A stretch of 31,156 bases of DNA from positions 1 to 31,156 of IMG/VR virus record IMGVR_UViG_2778261417_000015; one strand, 5' to 3'. Source of the DNA: a virus. Taxonomy: Duplodnaviria > Heunggongvirae > Uroviricota > Caudoviricetes. The stretch's first letter is position 1; each line of letters opens with the position of its first letter. Shown piece after piece: positions 9,892 to 20,134 of this stretch. The notes below the pieces were generated by a model that worked only from the letters and a program-made list of their open reading frames with translations, was not told the origin of the DNA and searched no databases. A program made the position numbers and the translations under genes.

Positions 9892-10762
9892 CGTATCCAA
9901 TTTAGCCGAAGCCAGAGAGGCCAGAAGGCTCCAGAAACCGCGCACGAATGACGGTAAGGGGTTTGCCTTGCTGCACCGTAAAATTATGGATGTGCCGTTC
10001 TACAAGGACGCTGAGGCGGCTCATTTATGGGTTCACATGCTCCTGCGTGCTAATCACGAACAGACACTGGTATCTACTGATGTTGGCGATGTGATCTGCG
10101 AGCGCGGAGAGTTCATCACCGGGCGAAACACACTGGCAATGGAAACGGGTTTGACCGCTGATCGCGTTAAATCCCTTCTCCGTAAATTCCAGAATCTGGG
10201 CATGATCACCACCAAATCGAACAACCGTTTTACTGTTCTAAAAGTGGTCAAATATGACGAATATCAGTCAAATTTTTGTCCAGCAGATGTCCAGCCAGCG
10301 TCCAGCCCAAACATAGTCGTACCAATGCCTGCGGAGGTGGAGTGTCCAGCCGATGTCCAGCCAGTGTCCACAGATAACAATATATTAAATAACTTACTAC
10401 CTAACGGTAGTAAGTATGTCGCAAATGACCAGAAACCCGCTGAAGAGAAAAAGTCTCGTTTGTCATGCGATGAAGTATGGCAATGCCTGAAAGACGAACT
10501 GCCTGAAGCACGGGGATGGAGATGCCTCACTGATGAGCGACGCAATCTGATCCGCACATTCTGGGGTAAGGCTAATAAGATTGCCCGCAACCTGGACGGC
10601 AAGCCGATGGATATGGACGGTTTCAGAAGCTATCTGCGTTACATCGCTCAGAACTGCCGCTGGATGCTTGAAGACCGACCAGACCAGAAGTCTGGGAAGA
10701 CCTGGCGCCGTATGAAATTCGATAAGTTCCTGACCGAAAAGCTCTACATCGAAGTGCGCTAG
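9878..10762 (+). CDS. Replication initiator (lambda O-like) with internal origin, 294 aa
   Basis: Winged-helix-like N-terminal domain, iterons embedded in mid-gene, immediately upstream of the DnaB-type helicase. Confidence 0.6.
   Translation: MAVGNVSNLAEAREARRLQKPRTNDGKGFALLHRKIMDVPFYKDAEAAHLWVHMLLRANHEQTLVSTDVGDVICERGEFITGRNTLAMETGLTADRVKSLLRKFQNLGMITTKSNNRFTVLKVVKYDEYQSNFCPADVQPASSPNIVVPMPAEVECPADVQPVSTDNNILNNLLPNGSKYVANDQKPAEEKKSRLSCDEVWQCLKDELPEARGWRCLTDERRNLIRTFWGKANKIARNLDGKPMDMDGFRSYLRYIAQNCRWMLEDRPDQKSGKTWRRMKFDKFLTEKLYIEVR
10277..10373. repeat. Origin iterons, followed by an AT-rich stretch
   Basis: Six copies of a TGTCCAGCC-type unit in two clusters (10277-10308 and 10342-10373), followed by AT-rich ATAACAATATATTAAATAA. 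Encoded as a repeated PADVQP peptide. Confidence 0.6.
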
Positions 10763-15330: not shown

Positions 15331-15964
15331 GCCATCCCGCCGTAAGTGCAAAGTCTGTGATGAGTGGTTCGTGCCGAAATACCACGATATCCGGATCCGC
15401 TGGTGCTGCCCGGAGCATGGCGCCATCCTGGCAATTGAGGAGCGAGCCAAGGAGAAAGTGAAGGAGGCCGCGAAGCGCATTAAAGAGCAGAAAGAGGCCG
15501 AGAAGGCAGGGCGCAAGCGCCGCAAGGAGCGACTGGCAGAGCTACGTCCTGCAGGTTACTACAAGGCGCAGGCTCAACAAGCATTCAACGCCTTCATCCG
15601 TGCCCGTGATGCCGATTTGCCATGTATCAGTTGCGGCGAGTCCAATCCGCCTGATCTGCATGGCGGTCAGTGGGATTGCGGCCACTTCAAGACGGTCGGC
15701 GCCAACCCTGAACTGCGTTTTGAAGAGCGGAACGCTCATAAGCAGTGCAAATCCTGCAATGCAGGGGCTGGAAAGTACACCGCCAAAGAGGCGACGGTCG
15801 CGCAGCAATACGAAGCCGGTCTGGTTGCTCGTTTTGGTCAGGAGTACGTCGACTGGCTTAACGGCCCCCACGAAATGACCAACTACCGACGTGAAGACTT
15901 TATCCGGATCCGGGATGAGTACCGCGCCAAGCTCAAAGCACTGAAACAGCAGGAGGCAGCATGA
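15323..15964 (+). CDS. ninG: NinG (Rap) recombination protein (213 aa from the internal Met)
   Basis: Matches recalled lambda NinG (RKCKVCDEWF ... QQAFNAFIRARDADLPCISCG ... HKQCKSCN). ATG at 15323 has a GGAGGG RBS and overlaps the ninB 3' end. Confidence 0.8.
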   Translation: MHKPSRRKCKVCDEWFVPKYHDIRIRWCCPEHGAILAIEERAKEKVKEAAKRIKEQKEAEKAGRKRRKERLAELRPAGYYKAQAQQAFNAFIRARDADLPCISCGESNPPDLHGGQWDCGHFKTVGANPELRFEERNAHKQCKSCNAGAGKYTAKEATVAQQYEAGLVARFGQEYVDWLNGPHEMTNYRREDFIRIRDEYRAKLKALKQQEAA

Positions 15965-16101
15965 AAAAGGAAGCCATTGCAGCACTCAAAACTCGCTGGC
16001 AGCGCCAACGCCTGTACCGCTTCCCCGGCTCAGTCCTGACCTATTACCGAATCATCCATAACGCAGCCCGTCTAATTCAGAAAGCAGGAGCCACGCAATG
16101 A
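15961..16101 (+). CDS. Small hypothetical protein (46 aa), translationally coupled
   Basis: Hand-translated ORF (MKKEAIAALKTRWQRQRLYRFPGSVLTYYRIIHNAARLIQKAGATQ) with ATGA overlaps at both ends, to the ninG stop and the Q-like start. Confidence 0.4.
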   Translation: MKKEAIAALKTRWQRQRLYRFPGSVLTYYRIIHNAARLIQKAGATQ

Positions 16102-16787
16102 ATACGCAATATCTTGAGTTTGTTCGACAACAGCTCATCGTGGCAACCGCTGACCTGAGCGGAGCGACGAAAGGGCAACTCATAGCTTTCGCTGAGAACG
16201 CGCAATTCACCGCGACGGCGCGCTGCCGGGGCCGGAAAAAAGTATTCGACAAGGATAAGCAGCGCATGGTGAACCCGGACGGCCCGCCGATGAGCGGCAG
16301 CCAGTCGCGCGCCAAAGGCTCATCAATCGCTCTGGTAAGCCCGGTAGAGTTCAGCACCGCATCCTGGCGACGCGCTGTTTTGTCACTGGAAGAACATCAG
16401 AAGGCCTGGCTTCTGTGGAACTACAGCGAGAACATCCGCTTTGAGTATCAGGTGGCGATCACTCAGTGGGCGTGGGCAGAGTTTCGTGAACAGCTCGGCG
16501 TGAAGAGGGTGGCGGGCAAGACGATGGAGCGCCTGAAGAAACTGATATGGCTGGCGGCGCAGGACACAAAAGAAGAGCTGGCAGGGCGTGAGACGTACGA
16601 ATACCAGGTGCTGGCGTCGCTGGTTGGCGTAACACCAAAGAACTGGTCAGAGACCTTTACGGACCACTGGATGGCGATGAGACGCATCTTCCTGAGCCTA
16701 GATAGTGGCGCTTTATTGCAGGTAACACGATCACGTTCACAACAAAAGGCGACAAACTCTCATGAAAGTCTTGCAAAACTGGATTGA
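16098..16787 (+). CDS. Late-gene antiterminator Q-like protein (229 aa)
   Basis: Assigned by position: last gene of the nin region, followed by a candidate promoter, strong terminators and the lysis cassette. Sequence resembles the recalled phage antitermination Q family, unverified. Confidence 0.55.
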   Translation: MNTQYLEFVRQQLIVATADLSGATKGQLIAFAENAQFTATARCRGRKKVFDKDKQRMVNPDGPPMSGSQSRAKGSSIALVSPVEFSTASWRRAVLSLEEHQKAWLLWNYSENIRFEYQVAITQWAWAEFREQLGVKRVAGKTMERLKKLIWLAAQDTKEELAGRETYEYQVLASLVGVTPKNWSETFTDHWMAMRRIFLSLDSGALLQVTRSRSQQKATNSHESLAKLD

Positions 16788-16798
16788 AACGCATATAT
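16770..16798 (+). promoter_or_regulatory. Candidate late promoter (pR'-like)
   Basis: TTGCAA (16770-16775), 17-bp spacer, TATATT (16793-16798), overlapping the 3' end of the Q-like gene and about 50 nt upstream of a strong terminator. Confidence 0.35.
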
Positions 16799-16851
16799 TT
16801 CATGTAAATCTGATATCGTCGCCATAGCTTCGGTAGTCGACAAACATTAAG

Positions 16852-16880
16852 AGCCTCGCCATCGTGCGGGGCTTTTTTAT
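16852..16880 (+). terminator. Rho-independent terminator (tR'-like)
   Basis: GCCTCGC-CATCGT-GCGGGGC (7-bp stem with one G-U pair) followed by TTTTTTATTT. Confidence 0.6.
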
Positions 16881-16983
16881 TTGTACTTCTTGTCGATTTT
16901 TATAAGGGTGAACTACGCTAAATATGCTCTCTGGACAATGACCATCAGACGGAATTGCCAAAGCAATCAACAGCTATTTGCTC

Positions 16984-17014
16984 CGGCCGTACGTTAACAA
17001 CGTCGGCTTTTTTA
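16984..17014 (+). terminator. Possible second terminator in the Q-holin leader
   Basis: Imperfect hairpin CCGTACG...CGTCGG followed by TTTTTT. Confidence 0.4.
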
Positions 17015-17155
17015 TGGGCATTGAAACTTCCTAAAAGACTGTAATGATTGCATGTTTTGCAACATTCCTGACTCAATATCATTACAATGCCGCCCAAGAG
17101 ATTTCTCTTGTTCACGAATTTTGATTTAGTTTCATCCGCATTTATTTAGCATTCA

Positions 17156-17185
17156 GGCTGCCATTCGGCGGCCTTTTTTTATTTT
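17156..17185 (+). terminator. Rho-independent terminator in the Q-holin leader
   Basis: GGCTGCC-ATTC-GGCGGCC followed by TTTTTTTATTTT. Confidence 0.55.
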
Positions 17186-17278
17186 CAGGTTCCGGGAATC
17201 ATCCTCGACATGCTTTGTTGTTAAATTCAGCCCGAGAACCTGACCCCTTTCAAACACAGCACCCGCAACTGTAGCGAG

Positions 17279-17602
17279 GTGATCATGGCAAAACGTATGA
17301 ATGACGACCACAAAATTGTAGGCCTGTCCTGGCTAATCCTGCTCGGCATTGCATGCTGGGGCGGTTTAGTACGCTACCTCATTGACGTAAAGCAGAATAA
17401 AGCCACATGGAGCTGGATAAACGCTCTGGCACAGATCGCCGTCTCCGGCTTTACCGGGCTGATCGGCGGATTGATAAGCGTGGAGAGCGGCCTGAGTTTT
17501 CACATGATTCTGGTTACCTCAGGCATTAGCGGGGCTATGGGCTCCGTGGCTCTGACTTATTTCTGGGAACGACTGACGGGGATGAAGAATGCAAACCAGT
17601 GA
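17279..17602 (+). CDS. Holin (107 aa), possible dual-start motif
   Basis: Hydrophobic segments typical of holins and position directly upstream of the endolysin. N-terminus M-I-M-A-K-R-M offers alternative starts. Confidence 0.7.
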   Translation: MIMAKRMNDDHKIVGLSWLILLGIACWGGLVRYLIDVKQNKATWSWINALAQIAVSGFTGLIGGLISVESGLSFHMILVTSGISGAMGSVALTYFWERLTGMKNANQ

Positions 17603-18038
17603 TAAAGGCATTGCTCTGATCAAGCAGTTCGAAGGCTGCAAGCTTACGGCTTATCCCGATCCTGGCACAGGTGGCGCGCCTTGGACAATTGGCTATGGAT
17701 GGACACAGCCTGTCGATGGAAAACTAGTGCGACCAGGAATGACGATTGACCAGGCAACAGCTGACCGCTTGTTAAAGACCGGGCTGGTGAGTTACGAAAA
17801 TGACGTCTCGCGACTGGTGAAGGTAAAACTGAGTCAGGGCCAGTTCGATGCGCTGGTGTCATTCACGTACAACCTGGGTTTCCGATCGCTGTCGACATCA
17901 ACACTGTTGAGCAAGCTTAATGCCGGTGATTATGCTGGCGCTGCCGACGAATTCCCGCGCTGGAATAAGGCTGGCGGCAAAGTACTTAATGGGCTGACAC
18001 GTCGGCGTGAGGCGGAGCGCGCTCTGTTCCTGTCGTGA
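17589..18038 (+). CDS. Endolysin, GH24 phage lysozyme (149 aa)
   Basis: T4/P22-type lysozyme motifs (FEGCKLTAYPDP ... WTIGYG). Overlaps the holin 3' end. Confidence 0.85.
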   Translation: MQTSDKGIALIKQFEGCKLTAYPDPGTGGAPWTIGYGWTQPVDGKLVRPGMTIDQATADRLLKTGLVSYENDVSRLVKVKLSQGQFDALVSFTYNLGFRSLSTSTLLSKLNAGDYAGAADEFPRWNKAGGKVLNGLTRRREAERALFLS

Positions 18039-18511
18039 TTTACGCGTTCGTAAAGCGCTACTGGCTGCAGTTGATGGTGATTGCGGTAATCTGCGTACTG
18101 GCGTTTTTCGTGAACTACTACCGCGACAACGCCATCACCTATAAAGACCAGCGCGATAAAGCTCAATCACTTGCAGAGCAGCAGCAGGACACCATTAACG
18201 ACATGCAGGTACGCCAGCGCGACGTTGCTGCACTGGATACCAAATACCTAAAGGAACTGGCAGATGCCAAAGCTCAGAACGATGCTCTTCAGCGCAAGCT
18301 TGATAATGGTGGTCGGGTGCTCGTCAAAGGCCGATGTCCAGTGCCAACCTCAACCGAAACCGCCAGCGCCTCCAGCATGGGCCATGATGCCACCGTCGAA
18401 CTCTCTGACGTTGCTGGACGAAACGTTCTCGGTATCCGAATCGGGATCAAGAAAGACCAGTCAGCCTTGATGGTGCTGCAGGAGTACATCAACACGCAGT
18501 GCCTTAAGTAA
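18035..18511 (+). CDS. Rz: Rz i-spanin (158 aa)
   Basis: N-terminal transmembrane helix, coiled-coil periplasmic domain, GTG start overlapping the endolysin stop, and an embedded Rz1 ORF. Confidence 0.7.
   Translation: MIYAFVKRYWLQLMVIAVICVLAFFVNYYRDNAITYKDQRDKAQSLAEQQQDTINDMQVRQRDVAALDTKYLKELADAKAQNDALQRKLDNGGRVLVKGRCPVPTSTETASASSMGHDATVELSDVAGRNVLGIRIGIKKDQSALMVLQEYINTQCLK
18264..18470 (+). CDS. Rz1: Rz1 o-spanin lipoprotein, embedded in Rz in another frame (68 aa)
   Basis: Signal peptide with lipobox (LIMVVGC) and a proline-rich mature region, entirely inside Rz in a different frame. Confidence 0.65.
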   Translation: MPKLRTMLFSASLIMVVGCSSKADVQCQPQPKPPAPPAWAMMPPSNSLTLLDETFSVSESGSRKTSQP

Positions 18512-18515
18512 ATGA

Positions 18516-18544
18516 GCCTCGCCATCGTGCAGGGCTTTTTTTGT
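18516..18544 (+). terminator. Rho-independent terminator after the lysis cassette
   Basis: GCCTCGC-CATCGT-GCAGGGC followed by TTTTTTT; near-identical to the terminator at 16852. Confidence 0.5.
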
Positions 18545-18571
18545 AACTAGAAGACGAAGAAGGAAGTAACC

Positions 18572-18955
18572 ATGTTTACAGTAAAAACCATCATCAACGG
18601 CGTAACGCATATCTGCGAAATGCCTACGTTTACAGTGGCACGCGCAGACTCAGAGCGATTTGACGACATCCTCAAGCTGACCAATGACCATTCCAATCCT
18701 GACTTTGCTATCTGGCTGCCGGATGTGTATGCCGATCCAGAATGCAAAAACGCACTGCAGGAAGAGGAGTTGATTGTCAGTGAGCGCGACGGCGTATTGG
18801 ATCATGAAGCCATTGCTGTCCTGATTGAAGACTTCGAAAGCCCTGAGCATGCGAAGAAACGCGCCTTTGATGGCATCCGTTACCAGTTCATCTACCCCGG
18901 CGATCAGGTTTACGTGATGAACTCTCACGGCTCGACCATCGAAACAGTTAAGTAG
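18572..18955 (+). CDS. Hypothetical protein (127 aa)
   Basis: Intact ORF with GGAAG-type RBS. No recognisable motif. Confidence 0.5.
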   Translation: MFTVKTIINGVTHICEMPTFTVARADSERFDDILKLTNDHSNPDFAIWLPDVYADPECKNALQEEELIVSERDGVLDHEAIAVLIEDFESPEHAKKRAFDGIRYQFIYPGDQVYVMNSHGSTIETVK

Positions 18956-19053
18956 TCATTACAGAAGCTCTTCACTAAGGGGCTTCGATAATGGATATAC
19001 CCTACAGCGGATAATCAACCAAATATCCCCACAAGCGGATAAAGAGGCTCTCA

Positions 19054-19257
19054 ATGTCCGACATCTACATCATCAAACTGACTACGAACGACGGCGGCGA
19101 GTACACAGGCAAGATGTCACGACGTCAGCCTGAGCTGGTTAATGGCTTCGTGCCGCTGGCGACCGAGACGGGCGAGTGGCTGTATTTCGCTCCGGCCGAT
19201 GTGAAGTGCGTGCAGTTCACCCCGATATCAGTAGTTGAAGATGGGGCTGCGCAATAA
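19054..19257 (+). CDS. Hypothetical small protein (67 aa)
   Basis: Intact ORF with plausible spacing. No recognisable motif. Confidence 0.4.
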   Translation: MSDIYIIKLTTNDGGEYTGKMSRRQPELVNGFVPLATETGEWLYFAPADVKCVQFTPISVVEDGAAQ

Positions 19258-19305
19258 GCATGGCATCTACGATTGGAGATTTACGAGTCCAAGGTAATGC
19301 CATGC
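19258..19305. repeat. 9-bp perfect inverted repeat between convergent genes
   Basis: GCATGGCAT (19258-19266) and ATGCCATGC (19297-19305) separated by 30 nt. Confidence 0.5.
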
Positions 19306-19320
19306 TGGTCACTTAGTTGC

Positions 19321-19539
19321 TTAGACCTTCTTATATGAGATAGATCGTCCAAATGGGGGATATGTAGAAGTTGAATCTTTAATTTCATAAGTAGCTACAA
19401 CATTTCCCGCAGCGTCTAACTCACGATAAAGATATTCGTCTGTATCCTGGCCTTTTCGGGCTCCTTTCCAGTTAGAAGAGACAAGCTCTAAGGTGTGATC
19501 GTCTGGGATACCGATTTTCTGTTTGTATTCATCACTCAT
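19321..19539 (-). CDS. Hypothetical small protein on the opposite strand (72 aa)
   Basis: Intact AT-rich ORF convergent with the upstream genes and divergent from the terminase small subunit gene. Confidence 0.5.
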   Translation of the reverse strand: MSDEYKQKIGIPDDHTLELVSSNWKGARKGQDTDEYLYRELDAAGNVVATYEIKDSTSTYPPFGRSISYKKV

Positions 19540-19561
19540 GTGAAGTCCTTATAGGTTAATT

Positions 19562-20134
19562 ATGGCACTCACCGACAAACAAGAGATGTTCTGTCGCGAG
19601 TACCTCATCGATTTAAACGCCACGCAAGCGGCTATTCGGGCGGGGTACAGCGCAAAGACAGCTAACCGCACAGCGTCCGAAAACCTGTCAAAACCTGACA
19701 TCCAGTCCAGAATTGCCGAACTTAAAGCGCAACGCAATGATCTGGTTGGCATAAATGCGACATACGTCCTGAATCGTCTCGTTGAGATTGACCAGATGGA
19801 CGTGCTCGACATCCTCAAAGACGACATGAGTCTGAAGCCAGTAAGCGAGTGGCCTTCATCCTGGCGAAGATATTTGAGCGGCTTCGATGTGGCTGAGATG
19901 TTTGAAGGTCGTGGGGAGGAGCGTGAGATGGTCGGGCTGCTCAAGAAAATTAAGTGGCCTGATAAAGTCAAAAACCTCGAGCTGCTCGGGAAGCACATAG
20001 ATGTGATGGCTTTCAAAGAGCAGGCCACTCATGAACACACAGGCAAGAACGGCGGGCCTATCGAAATGGCGACGCTGACGAAAGAAGAATATAAGGCTGC
20101 CCGGCGGGAGATGCTGGAGGATGACGACTGCTGA
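19562..20134 (+). CDS. Terminase small subunit (190 aa)
   Basis: Terminase small-subunit signature near the N-terminus (KQEMFCREYLIDLNATQAAIRAGYS), directly upstream of the large subunit. Confidence 0.8.
   Translation: MALTDKQEMFCREYLIDLNATQAAIRAGYSAKTANRTASENLSKPDIQSRIAELKAQRNDLVGINATYVLNRLVEIDQMDVLDILKDDMSLKPVSEWPSSWRRYLSGFDVAEMFEGRGEEREMVGLLKKIKWPDKVKNLELLGKHIDVMAFKEQATHEHTGKNGGPIEMATLTKEEYKAARREMLEDDDC

Follow-up and report, generated by a model that had tools for sequence, protein, structure and literature searches.

Two near-identical 28-bp sequences stand on either side of the lysis genes in the IMG/VR virus record IMGVR_UViG_2778261417_000015 (Caudoviricetes), and we consider it likely that they are two members of a widespread family of terminator hairpins, one placed as the late leader terminator tR′ and the other as the terminator at the end of the lysis genes. 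Both would be read through by an RNA polymerase modified by the antiterminator Q, and both lie exactly at mosaic junctions. The DNA analysed, referred to below as the window, is the whole stretch of 31,156 nucleotides (positions 1 to 31,156 of the record). The gene content of the window is overall that of a typical lambdoid temperate phage, with genes for a RecE-like exonuclease, RecT, CI, CII, an O-like initiator, DnaB, NinB (NinB/Orf), NinG (NinG/Rap), Q, the lysis proteins and terminase.

A near-identical 28-bp repeat with a single base change, as described in a sequence-only reading of the window, is indeed present. Copy 1, GAGCCTCGCCATCGTGCGGGGCTTTTTT, occupies 16851-16878 and copy 2, GAGCCTCGCCATCGTGCAGGGCTTTTTT, occupies 18514-18541, both on the + strand; the coordinates given in that reading were exact for copy 2, while copy 1 starts one base to the right of the given 16850. 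The copies are identical at 27 of 28 positions, the sole difference being at position 18 of the 28 (G in copy 1, A in copy 2), and no further match to the 28-mer with up to three mismatches was found elsewhere in the window. The identity is confined to the 28 bp: the 5′ flanks are CATTAA for copy 1 and GTAAAT for copy 2, and the 3′ flanks are ATTTGTAC and TGTAAC, respectively. A match to the 28-mer was seen in none of 100 dinucleotide-preserving shuffles of the window (0/100), and this, together with the identical 6-nt loop of the two copies, rules out that two terminators resemble one another by chance.

Copy 1 and the probable late leader

The region around copy 1 contains the following features:

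16098 to 16787, + strand: gene for the Q antiterminator, 229 aa (Pfam PF06323, Phage_antiter_Q, E 2.4e-87, covering 4-221)
16771 to 16799, + strand: candidate late promoter, pR′-like, TTGCAA-17-TATATT, from a consensus scan; it overlaps the last codons of Q
16803 to 16878, + strand: predicted IsrJ-family leader RNA, about 75 nt (Rfam RF01393, isrJ)
16851 to 16878, + strand: copy 1, putative tR′-type intrinsic terminator with stem GAGCCUCGC/GCGGGGCUU, loop CAUCGU and a T6 tract

With the holin gene starting at 17285, the order of these elements is that of a pR′-tR′ late control region. The candidate promoter is sigma-70-like, and transcription is predicted to start at about 16803-16806. The same arrangement, in which Q is followed by the promoter, the terminator and the lysis or late genes, is found in 79 of the 80 closest relatives of Q, a set picked by protein and not by hairpin and in that respect unbiased. 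In these 79 relatives the promoter and the early leader also hardly vary, and in 27 aligned Q relatives the promoter is nearly invariant despite overlapping a less conserved coding end. Such invariance is compatible with the presence of Q-loading and pause elements. A PDB sequence search with the Q protein returned no relative.

The RNA that would start at this promoter has the features of a known family. Copy 1 and the 50 nt preceding it match the full isrJ model (positions 1-75, window 16803-16875) with 69.9 bits and an E value of 4e-11, which by covariance-model score, against a gathering score of 37, places the region in RF01393. The RNA gene begins 16 nt past the stop codon of Q, and its predicted fold consists of a 5′ hairpin followed by the terminator hairpin, copy 1 being the 3′ hairpin of the isrJ match. 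An intrinsic terminator was defined by a G+C-rich stem of at least 5 bp, a loop of 3-8 nt and a T tract directly after it; copy 1 has a G+C-rich stem of 9 bp (9-11 pairs) with a U.G wobble, a 6-nt loop and the T6 tract. Its folding energy is -14.5 kcal/mol alone and -19.2 kcal/mol with flanks (z -5.0). The leader RNA at 16803-16878 is the short transcript to be expected from the late promoter without Q, and by position and logic copy 1 can be regarded, in analogy with other lambdoid phages, as the leader terminator tR′ of the late operon. The earlier suggestion that the repeats are functional terminators is thereby borne out, as a prediction, for copy 1, on account of its stem, T6 tract, fold and position at the 3′ end of isrJ.

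The late leader of phage lambda is 194 nt long. Leader RNAs made between pR′ and tR′ have been described as small RNAs in several phages, namely StxS, the lambda 6S RNA and their equivalents in phages 21, phi80, 82 and P22 (PMC7547250). The window would share with lambda 6S and StxS a short RNA from a Q-adjacent promoter that ends at an intrinsic terminator upstream of the lysis genes (PMC7547250), and also the logic by which that terminator is read through by the Q-modified polymerase. The sequences, however, are unrelated, the Q protein of the window is of a different family (PF06323), and the hairpin of lambda tR′, when compared, is a different one. The leaders also differ in length, about 75 nt in the window versus 258 nt for StxS (PMC7547250).

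The closer likeness is to IsrJ of Salmonella Gifsy-1. IsrJ is a virulence-linked small RNA of about 74 nt, which forms a stable transcript and binds Hfq (PMC2330248). A Gifsy-1-like locus in our collection, L001 (oriented 4443-6281), has the same promoter, leader and exact hairpin as the window. There is one difference: an isrK-orf45-anrP block parts Q from isrJ in Gifsy-1, and the two are nearly adjacent in the window. In L001 the Q homologue aligns only up to residue 220, and the approximately 1 kb after it carries isrK, a C4-like RNA and an ORF6N (AnrP-type) gene; the homology to the window then restarts exactly at the -35 hexamer and runs through isrJ. Because the homology restarts at this hexamer, beyond the inserted block, the isrJ promoter would be the very promoter that abuts Q. 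Salmonella IsrJ appears, from this comparison, to be the Gifsy-1 counterpart of lambda 6S and StxS, made from a Q-controlled late promoter. A link between IsrJ and a late-promoter leader was not found in the IsrJ/IsrK literature searched (PMC2330248, PMC4825925).

Two variations of the leader region are worth recording. In L387 (226-455), and also in L075 and L100, a small open reading frame (ORF) of about 75 aa, ending in ...EPEWGDWKPVP, lies within the leader, past the late promoter and ahead of the tR′ hairpin. In the relatives L120 (4265-4496), L392, L396, L394, L387 and L010, tRNA genes often start some 10-30 nt past the tR′ hairpin, as they do in Stx phages; the window has no tRNA gene at this place.

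Copy 2 and the site after Rz

Two features make up the downstream end of the lysis region:

18514 to 18541, + strand: copy 2, putative post-lysis terminator hairpin with a tR′-type loop and a G-to-A change at 18531
18542 to 18955, + strand: conserved spacer GTAACTAGAAGACGAAGAAGGAAGTAACC and the phrog_1453 gene (127 aa, phiKO2 gp63-like; phrog_1453, E 1.8e-51)

Copy 2 lies 2 nt past the stop codon of Rz and 30 nt ahead of the phrog_1453 gene. It has the layout of copy 1, with a T7 tract, but the G-to-A change introduces an internal C.A mismatch, and the folding energy is -9.3 kcal/mol. Since the mismatch weakens the stem, copy 2 is probably a leaky terminator, as judged from the predicted fold. 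For this copy, then, the claim of terminator function receives a divided answer, with the layout and the position shared with phages N15 and phiKO2 in its favor and the mismatch against it.

Both of those phages have an annotated putative terminator at the corresponding site, N15 at 43982-44005 after the Rz-like gene 55 (GGAGCCTCGC-AATA-GCGGGGCTTTTTT) and phiKO2 at 50818-50841 ahead of gp63 (loop ATTT). They resemble copy 2 in position, in the stem GCCTCGC/GCGGGGC and in the U.G wobble, and are followed by a T6 tract; they lack the 6-nt CATCGT loop of copy 2, which is typical of tR′, and its destabilising G-to-A change. In Cronobacter phage ENT39118 the similarity to the window extends from Rz across the hairpin, the loop being TATTA. 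The phrog_1453 gene was found in 68 viral loci, nearly all of which have a hairpin of the family about 50 nt upstream together with the conserved spacer. At least nine unrelated sequences precede the hairpin in these loci, so the gene travels with the hairpin.

The usual loops at the post-Rz site are AATA, ATTA, ATCC or ACTA. Loops of the CATCGT or CATCGC type are found there in L387, L391, L394, L396, L397 and L398, each with a point change of its own, and the G-to-A change of the window is one more such point variant. In several relatives the stem at this site has decayed, which suggests that the constraint is weaker here than at tR′. When the A variant of copy 2 was searched for, it was found in one viral contig, L121, where it stands behind a promoter-like leader and not after Rz.

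Could copy 2 belong to a second isrJ gene? A weak isrJ match of 21.6 bits does overlap it; the match, however, falls below the gathering score, has an E value of 0.62 and overlaps the coding sequence of Rz, so that only the hairpin is shared and the candidate was rejected. No other RNA family turned up when 16700-19600 was searched with Rfam at high sensitivity. An origin of the pair as two isrJ small-RNA genes, or as two terminators alike by chance, is in our judgement extremely improbable.

Direct repeats identical at 27 of 28 bp around a discrete block of 1.66 kb also bring to mind a local event, such as a target-site-like duplication or a scar left when the lysis cassette was recently inserted or duplicated. 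The comparative data largely refute this. The tR′ copy occurs without a matching post-Rz copy in many phages, and the post-Rz copy occurs without a matching tR′ in N15, phiKO2, ENT39118, L391, L396 and L397. Moreover, the block between the copies is itself mosaic, with internal breakpoints, and no transposase or integrase gene was found in it. We regard such an event as very unlikely.

The hairpin family at module boundaries

The exact 24-nt core of the hairpin, GCCTCGCCATCGTGCGGGGCTTTT, was found in at least 119 IMG/VR contigs and in 45 species-representative genomes, in all cases with G. The genome matches comprise about 23 in Pseudomonas, 19 in Enterobacterales and one each in a Paraburkholderia, a Salipiger and an Alteromonadaceae genome, in addition to metagenome-assembled genomes. 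Loci with the exact core span 39-66% GC and belong to Gamma-, Beta- and Alphaproteobacteria. Beyond A-[core]-T-YR-TTT the information content is close to zero, which puts the length of the unit at about 35 nt, and among the 164 occurrences listed there are at least 73 upstream and at least 76 downstream flank classes, in at least 102 combinations. The genes upstream of the hairpin fall into 26 protein clusters among the matches listed, with three unrelated Q families among them, PF06323 (33 loci), PF06530 (25 + 7) and PF03589 (3), as well as ORF6N, a GpV-like protein, HNH endonucleases and Mu-F-like head proteins; among the genes downstream are holins of three families, scaffold proteins, a baseplate protein and an HNH endonuclease. 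Judging from this range of neighbours, the hairpin is most often a tR′ but is used inside late or structural operons too. The exact hairpin sequence was not found in the literature searched.

In some contigs the hairpin has company. In L036, a contig of 61% GC, the exact hairpin follows a PF06530-like Q; 16 nt further downstream comes a Proteo-phage-1 RNA motif (RF03044, 65 bits; 1698-1776, - strand), and after this motif a second similar hairpin. A second conserved hairpin, GACCCGGCC-nnn-GCGCCGGGTTTTCCATTTCTAGA, stands ahead of the family hairpin in high-GC viral contigs (L004, L007, L020, L028, L034, L053, L055, L059, L062, L068, L071, L073, L076 and L080), forming a tandem unit of about 62 nt; the genes ahead of this unit are unrelated (Mu-F-like, HNH and others), and seven different downstream sequences follow it.

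The region between the two copies has to be described before the boundaries can be considered:

16886 to 17170, + strand: AT-rich inserted segment of 285 nt (41% GC versus 52%), between copy 1 and terminator t3
17155 to 17181, + strand: putative terminator t3, at a mosaic junction; AGGCTGCC-ATTC-GGCGGCCT-T7, -15.0 kcal/mol, z -4.0
17175 to 17282, + strand: conserved holin 5′ leader, about 108 nt, 72-87% identity in about 50 fetched loci
17285 to 17602, + strand: holin (phrog_785, E 7.8e-39)
17589 to 18038, + strand: endolysin (phrog_7, E 6e-67)
18035 to 18511, + strand: Rz spanin (phrog_13, E 5.4e-59)
18264 to 18470, + strand: Rz1, embedded in Rz (phrog_3198, E 1.7e-22)

The family matches of these genes, together with that of Q, agree with the gene context of a Q-like gene followed by a holin-endolysin-spanin module that the sequence-only reading had proposed. 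To map breakpoints, every fetched locus was aligned to the window at 15500-19600. A cluster of 56 alignments comes to an end at the 3′ edge of copy 1 (16877-16886); 37 alignments start at 17170/17175, in the T tract of t3; and further alignments start or end at 18505-18532, within or next to copy 2. At least nine different downstream sequences are joined to one and the same leader no more than 8 nt from the T tract. Paired family hairpins at a distance of 0.9-2.5 kb were found in 20 loci, and in 17 of the 20 the upstream hairpin is of the tR′ type. In the four pairs that were inspected (L038, L136, L223 and L010), the interval is a lysis cassette of differing gene families, with holins of phrog_785, phrog_1350 or phrog_126, endolysins of phrog_7 or phrog_181 and spanins of phrog_13 or phrog_214. 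In L387 both sites have CATCGT, with 2.47 kb between them, and L394 has CATTGT and CATCGC at its two sites. The same short sequence is found, in other words, at the junctions of non-homologous modules, and the idea that the repeats mark a swappable lysis module finds good support in the relatives.

Whether the hairpin also drives the exchange is a different question. Short conserved sequences between exchangeable modules are said to have been recognized long ago in lambdoid phages, reportedly by Susskind and Botstein in 1978, Juhala et al. in 2000 and Clark et al. in 2001, as linker or boundary sequences within the modular theory and as the terminators that bound inserted "morons". The hairpins described here resemble such linkers in standing between modules, and the morons in that terminators delimit the inserted units. 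They differ in that the sequence is a defined terminator hairpin, is shared beyond the lambdoid coliphages (e.g., with Pseudomonas) and can itself be swapped.

An active recombination linker would be a unit of about 24-35 bp that acts as the crossover site for annealing by RecT, Red-beta or Erf, the hairpin being kept in part for promoting exchange. Much of the evidence above can be read in this way: the numerous flank classes and their combinations around an exact core, the near absence of information outside the unit, and the many downstream sequences joined to one leader so close to the T tract. The unit length fits the minimal pairing segment of Red-beta, 23-27 bp, and about 70% of phage mosaics are without traces of longer homology (PMC3945230). 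The window encodes the RecE-like exonuclease, RecT, NinB/Orf and NinG/Rap, and the presence of a tR′-type loop at the post-Rz site implies an exchange between two hairpin sites.

The control with t3, on the other hand, indicates that there is nothing special in this pattern except the abundance of the 28-mer. The exact 24-mer of t3 (CAGGCTGCCATTCGGCGGCCTTTT, window 17153-17176) occurs in 24 viral contigs with nine upstream and eight downstream flank classes in 10 combinations, all at loci of 49-55% GC. The idea that the 28-mer is uniquely promiscuous was therefore given up: these phages quite generally have identical terminators between unrelated flanks, the 28-mer being the commonest and most broadly distributed example.

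The Q-based sample adds a second argument. The hairpin type of copy 1 is found in 32 of the 79 loci, 22 of the 32 being exact, and the variants differ mostly in two bases at the loop apex, with one compensatory stem pair in addition, a pattern that an RNA hairpin under structural selection would show. Some 41 of the 79 loci have an unrelated hairpin instead, AGCCCGAGG-TTAAC-GCCTTGGGCT. With leader and downstream sequence unchanged, either type can stand in between, so the hairpin is an interchangeable mini-module that is not co-adapted with Q, and the notion of a co-adapted hairpin was dropped. Two unrelated hairpins between constant neighbours are the reverse of what a conserved linker joining variable modules would give. 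Viable junctions immediately past tR′ would also be expected from selection by itself, and no deletion product, in which the leader and hairpin would be joined to the phrog_1453 spacer without the lysis genes, was present among 48 candidate sites. In the loci L453-L531 the alternative tR′ hairpin (AGCCCGAGG-TTAAC-GCCTTGGGCTTTTT) is found about 50 nt past the leader start and is commoner than the 28-mer type; L500 has another stem and a loop that is almost that of the 28-mer (AACCCGC-CATCGA-GCGGGT).

The positional half of the linker proposal is supported, since the repeats do lie at junctions; the causal half is weakened by the t3 control and by the swapping of hairpins between identical flanks. 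An active role is plausible from the sequence patterns, although we consider it rather unlikely. A broader version, in which the hairpin of about 35 nt, A-GCCTCGCCATCGTGCGGGGC-T5, is a portable homology cassette by which RecT, Red-beta or Erf recombinases exchange late modules among temperate phages, we hold to be unlikely. If it were true, the cassette would work across Enterobacterales, Pseudomonas and occasionally other Proteobacteria, the copies flanking the lysis genes would be one pair of exchange points, and part of the mosaic junctions that lack a longer homology trace would be explained.

The conservation of the hairpin might instead reflect a factor that reads its sequence, for example Hfq binding to a 3′ module, or a phage or host protein or nuclease that has the hairpin as its target. 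The persistence of the exact 24-mer over such a range of GC content and of proteobacterial classes is in line with this, and so is the loop. With the stem fixed, CATCGT accounts for 50 of 119 sampled 6-nt loops and the next commonest for 7, and the loop variants retain CA..GT and alter the two apex bases; Rfam, furthermore, labels isrJ as Hfq-binding. The same survey also yields 50 other types of 6-nt loop, as well as equally numerous 4-nt loops of 37 types among the sampled matches. The stem with arbitrary 4- or 6-nt loops is very common, in contigs of 36-65% GC; convergence is therefore possible, and the stem alone, which is not diagnostic, was dropped as the mark of the family. That the same stem carries dozens of other loops counts against recognition of a specific sequence, as do the close Q relatives that use an unrelated hairpin about as often or more, the many changes tolerated by post-lysis copies and the occurrence of the hairpin in unrelated places, such as between head genes or between baseplate genes. 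No candidate binding protein was linked to the hairpin. Sequence-specific recognition seems to us quite improbable.

We return to the reading of the copies as two ordinary family members in the roles of tR′ and end-of-lysis terminator. A constitutive late promoter overlapping the 3′ end of Q would start the IsrJ-family leader RNA of about 75 nt. Without Q, transcription would halt at copy 1 and the small RNA would be released. With Q on the RNA polymerase, copy 1, two further hairpins, the lysis genes and copy 2 would be read through, and transcription would continue into the phrog_1453 gene and the terminase genes; these steps are modelled on the known mechanism of lambdoid Q proteins. Copy 2 would be the usual terminator that closes the lysis cassette in this phage group, weakened here by the C.A mismatch. 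Both hairpins stand at mosaic junctions and would behave as small, self-contained and interchangeable modules, and the likeness of the two copies would stem from exchange among family members and not from local duplication or coincidence: a common ancestor of this phage and of L387, L391, L394 and L396-L398 would have acquired a tR′-type loop after Rz.

Several points weigh against this reading. The tR′ and post-Rz sites share only arms of 9 and 13 bp, and the transfer of a 6-nt loop between them is hard to account for. Copy 2 may be non-functional, because its fold with flanks is no better than that of shuffles and a terminator scan did not call it. The promoter fits the consensus at 9 of 12 positions, and no Q-binding or pause element was identified, there being no motif defined for Q proteins of PF06323. 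The transcript, its termination and the Q readthrough in this phage are predictions from sequence. As for the samples, most comparison loci entered the analysis because they carry the hairpin, the gene next to it or Q, and the counts therefore describe a non-random sample; IMG/VR is a redundant collection in which the counts from several scans are lower bounds.

Other features of the window and the meaning of the hairpins

The spacer from copy 1 to the holin gene is 400 nt long and holds two more terminator-like hairpins. Within the AT-rich segment at 16886-17170 there are a hairpin (16985-17013) and a promoter-like site (17021-17048), and its only ORFs are tiny (19 and 27 aa). A single fetched locus, L140, shares the segment, at 95.8% identity; in L140 an isrI-like RNA (RF01392) lies directly upstream of it. 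The segment could be a moron, or else a small RNA not yet characterised. The conserved holin leader begins exactly at the T tract of t3.

Three other repeats were seen outside this region. A terminator-like hairpin, ACCCGC-TCCG-GCGGGT with a T run, occurs twice, at 6578-6596 and 29641-29659, with 19 of 19 bases identical, on opposite strands and with 23 kb between the two. Repeated 28-mers of the TGTCCAGC type at 10277-10304 and 10343-10370, within the O-like replication initiator gene, are probably origin iterons. A 9-nt tandem repeat, GCAGAGCAG, in about eight copies at 27693-27764, encodes (AEQ)n near the C-terminus of a late protein.

The elements described here are of known kinds, namely an intrinsic terminator, a late-leader RNA, the isrJ family and the terminators of N15 and phiKO2. 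What is modestly new is the pattern across relatives and the interpretation of IsrJ as a late-promoter leader; neither was found in the literature searched. The result is mainly a clarifying one: the duplicated terminator would be no special device but the tR′ of an IsrJ-family RNA together with the usual end-of-lysis terminator, both of them, as far as their sequences tell, ordinary terminators acting as small interchangeable modules at mosaic junctions. For Salmonella, an IsrJ that is a late leader, parted from Q by the isrK-anrP block, would change how the regulation of IsrJ is read. For the temperate phages at large, identical short terminators in more than 100 unrelated contexts, and at the borders of exchanged lysis cassettes, offer a testable candidate for the short homologies behind "trace-less" mosaic junctions.

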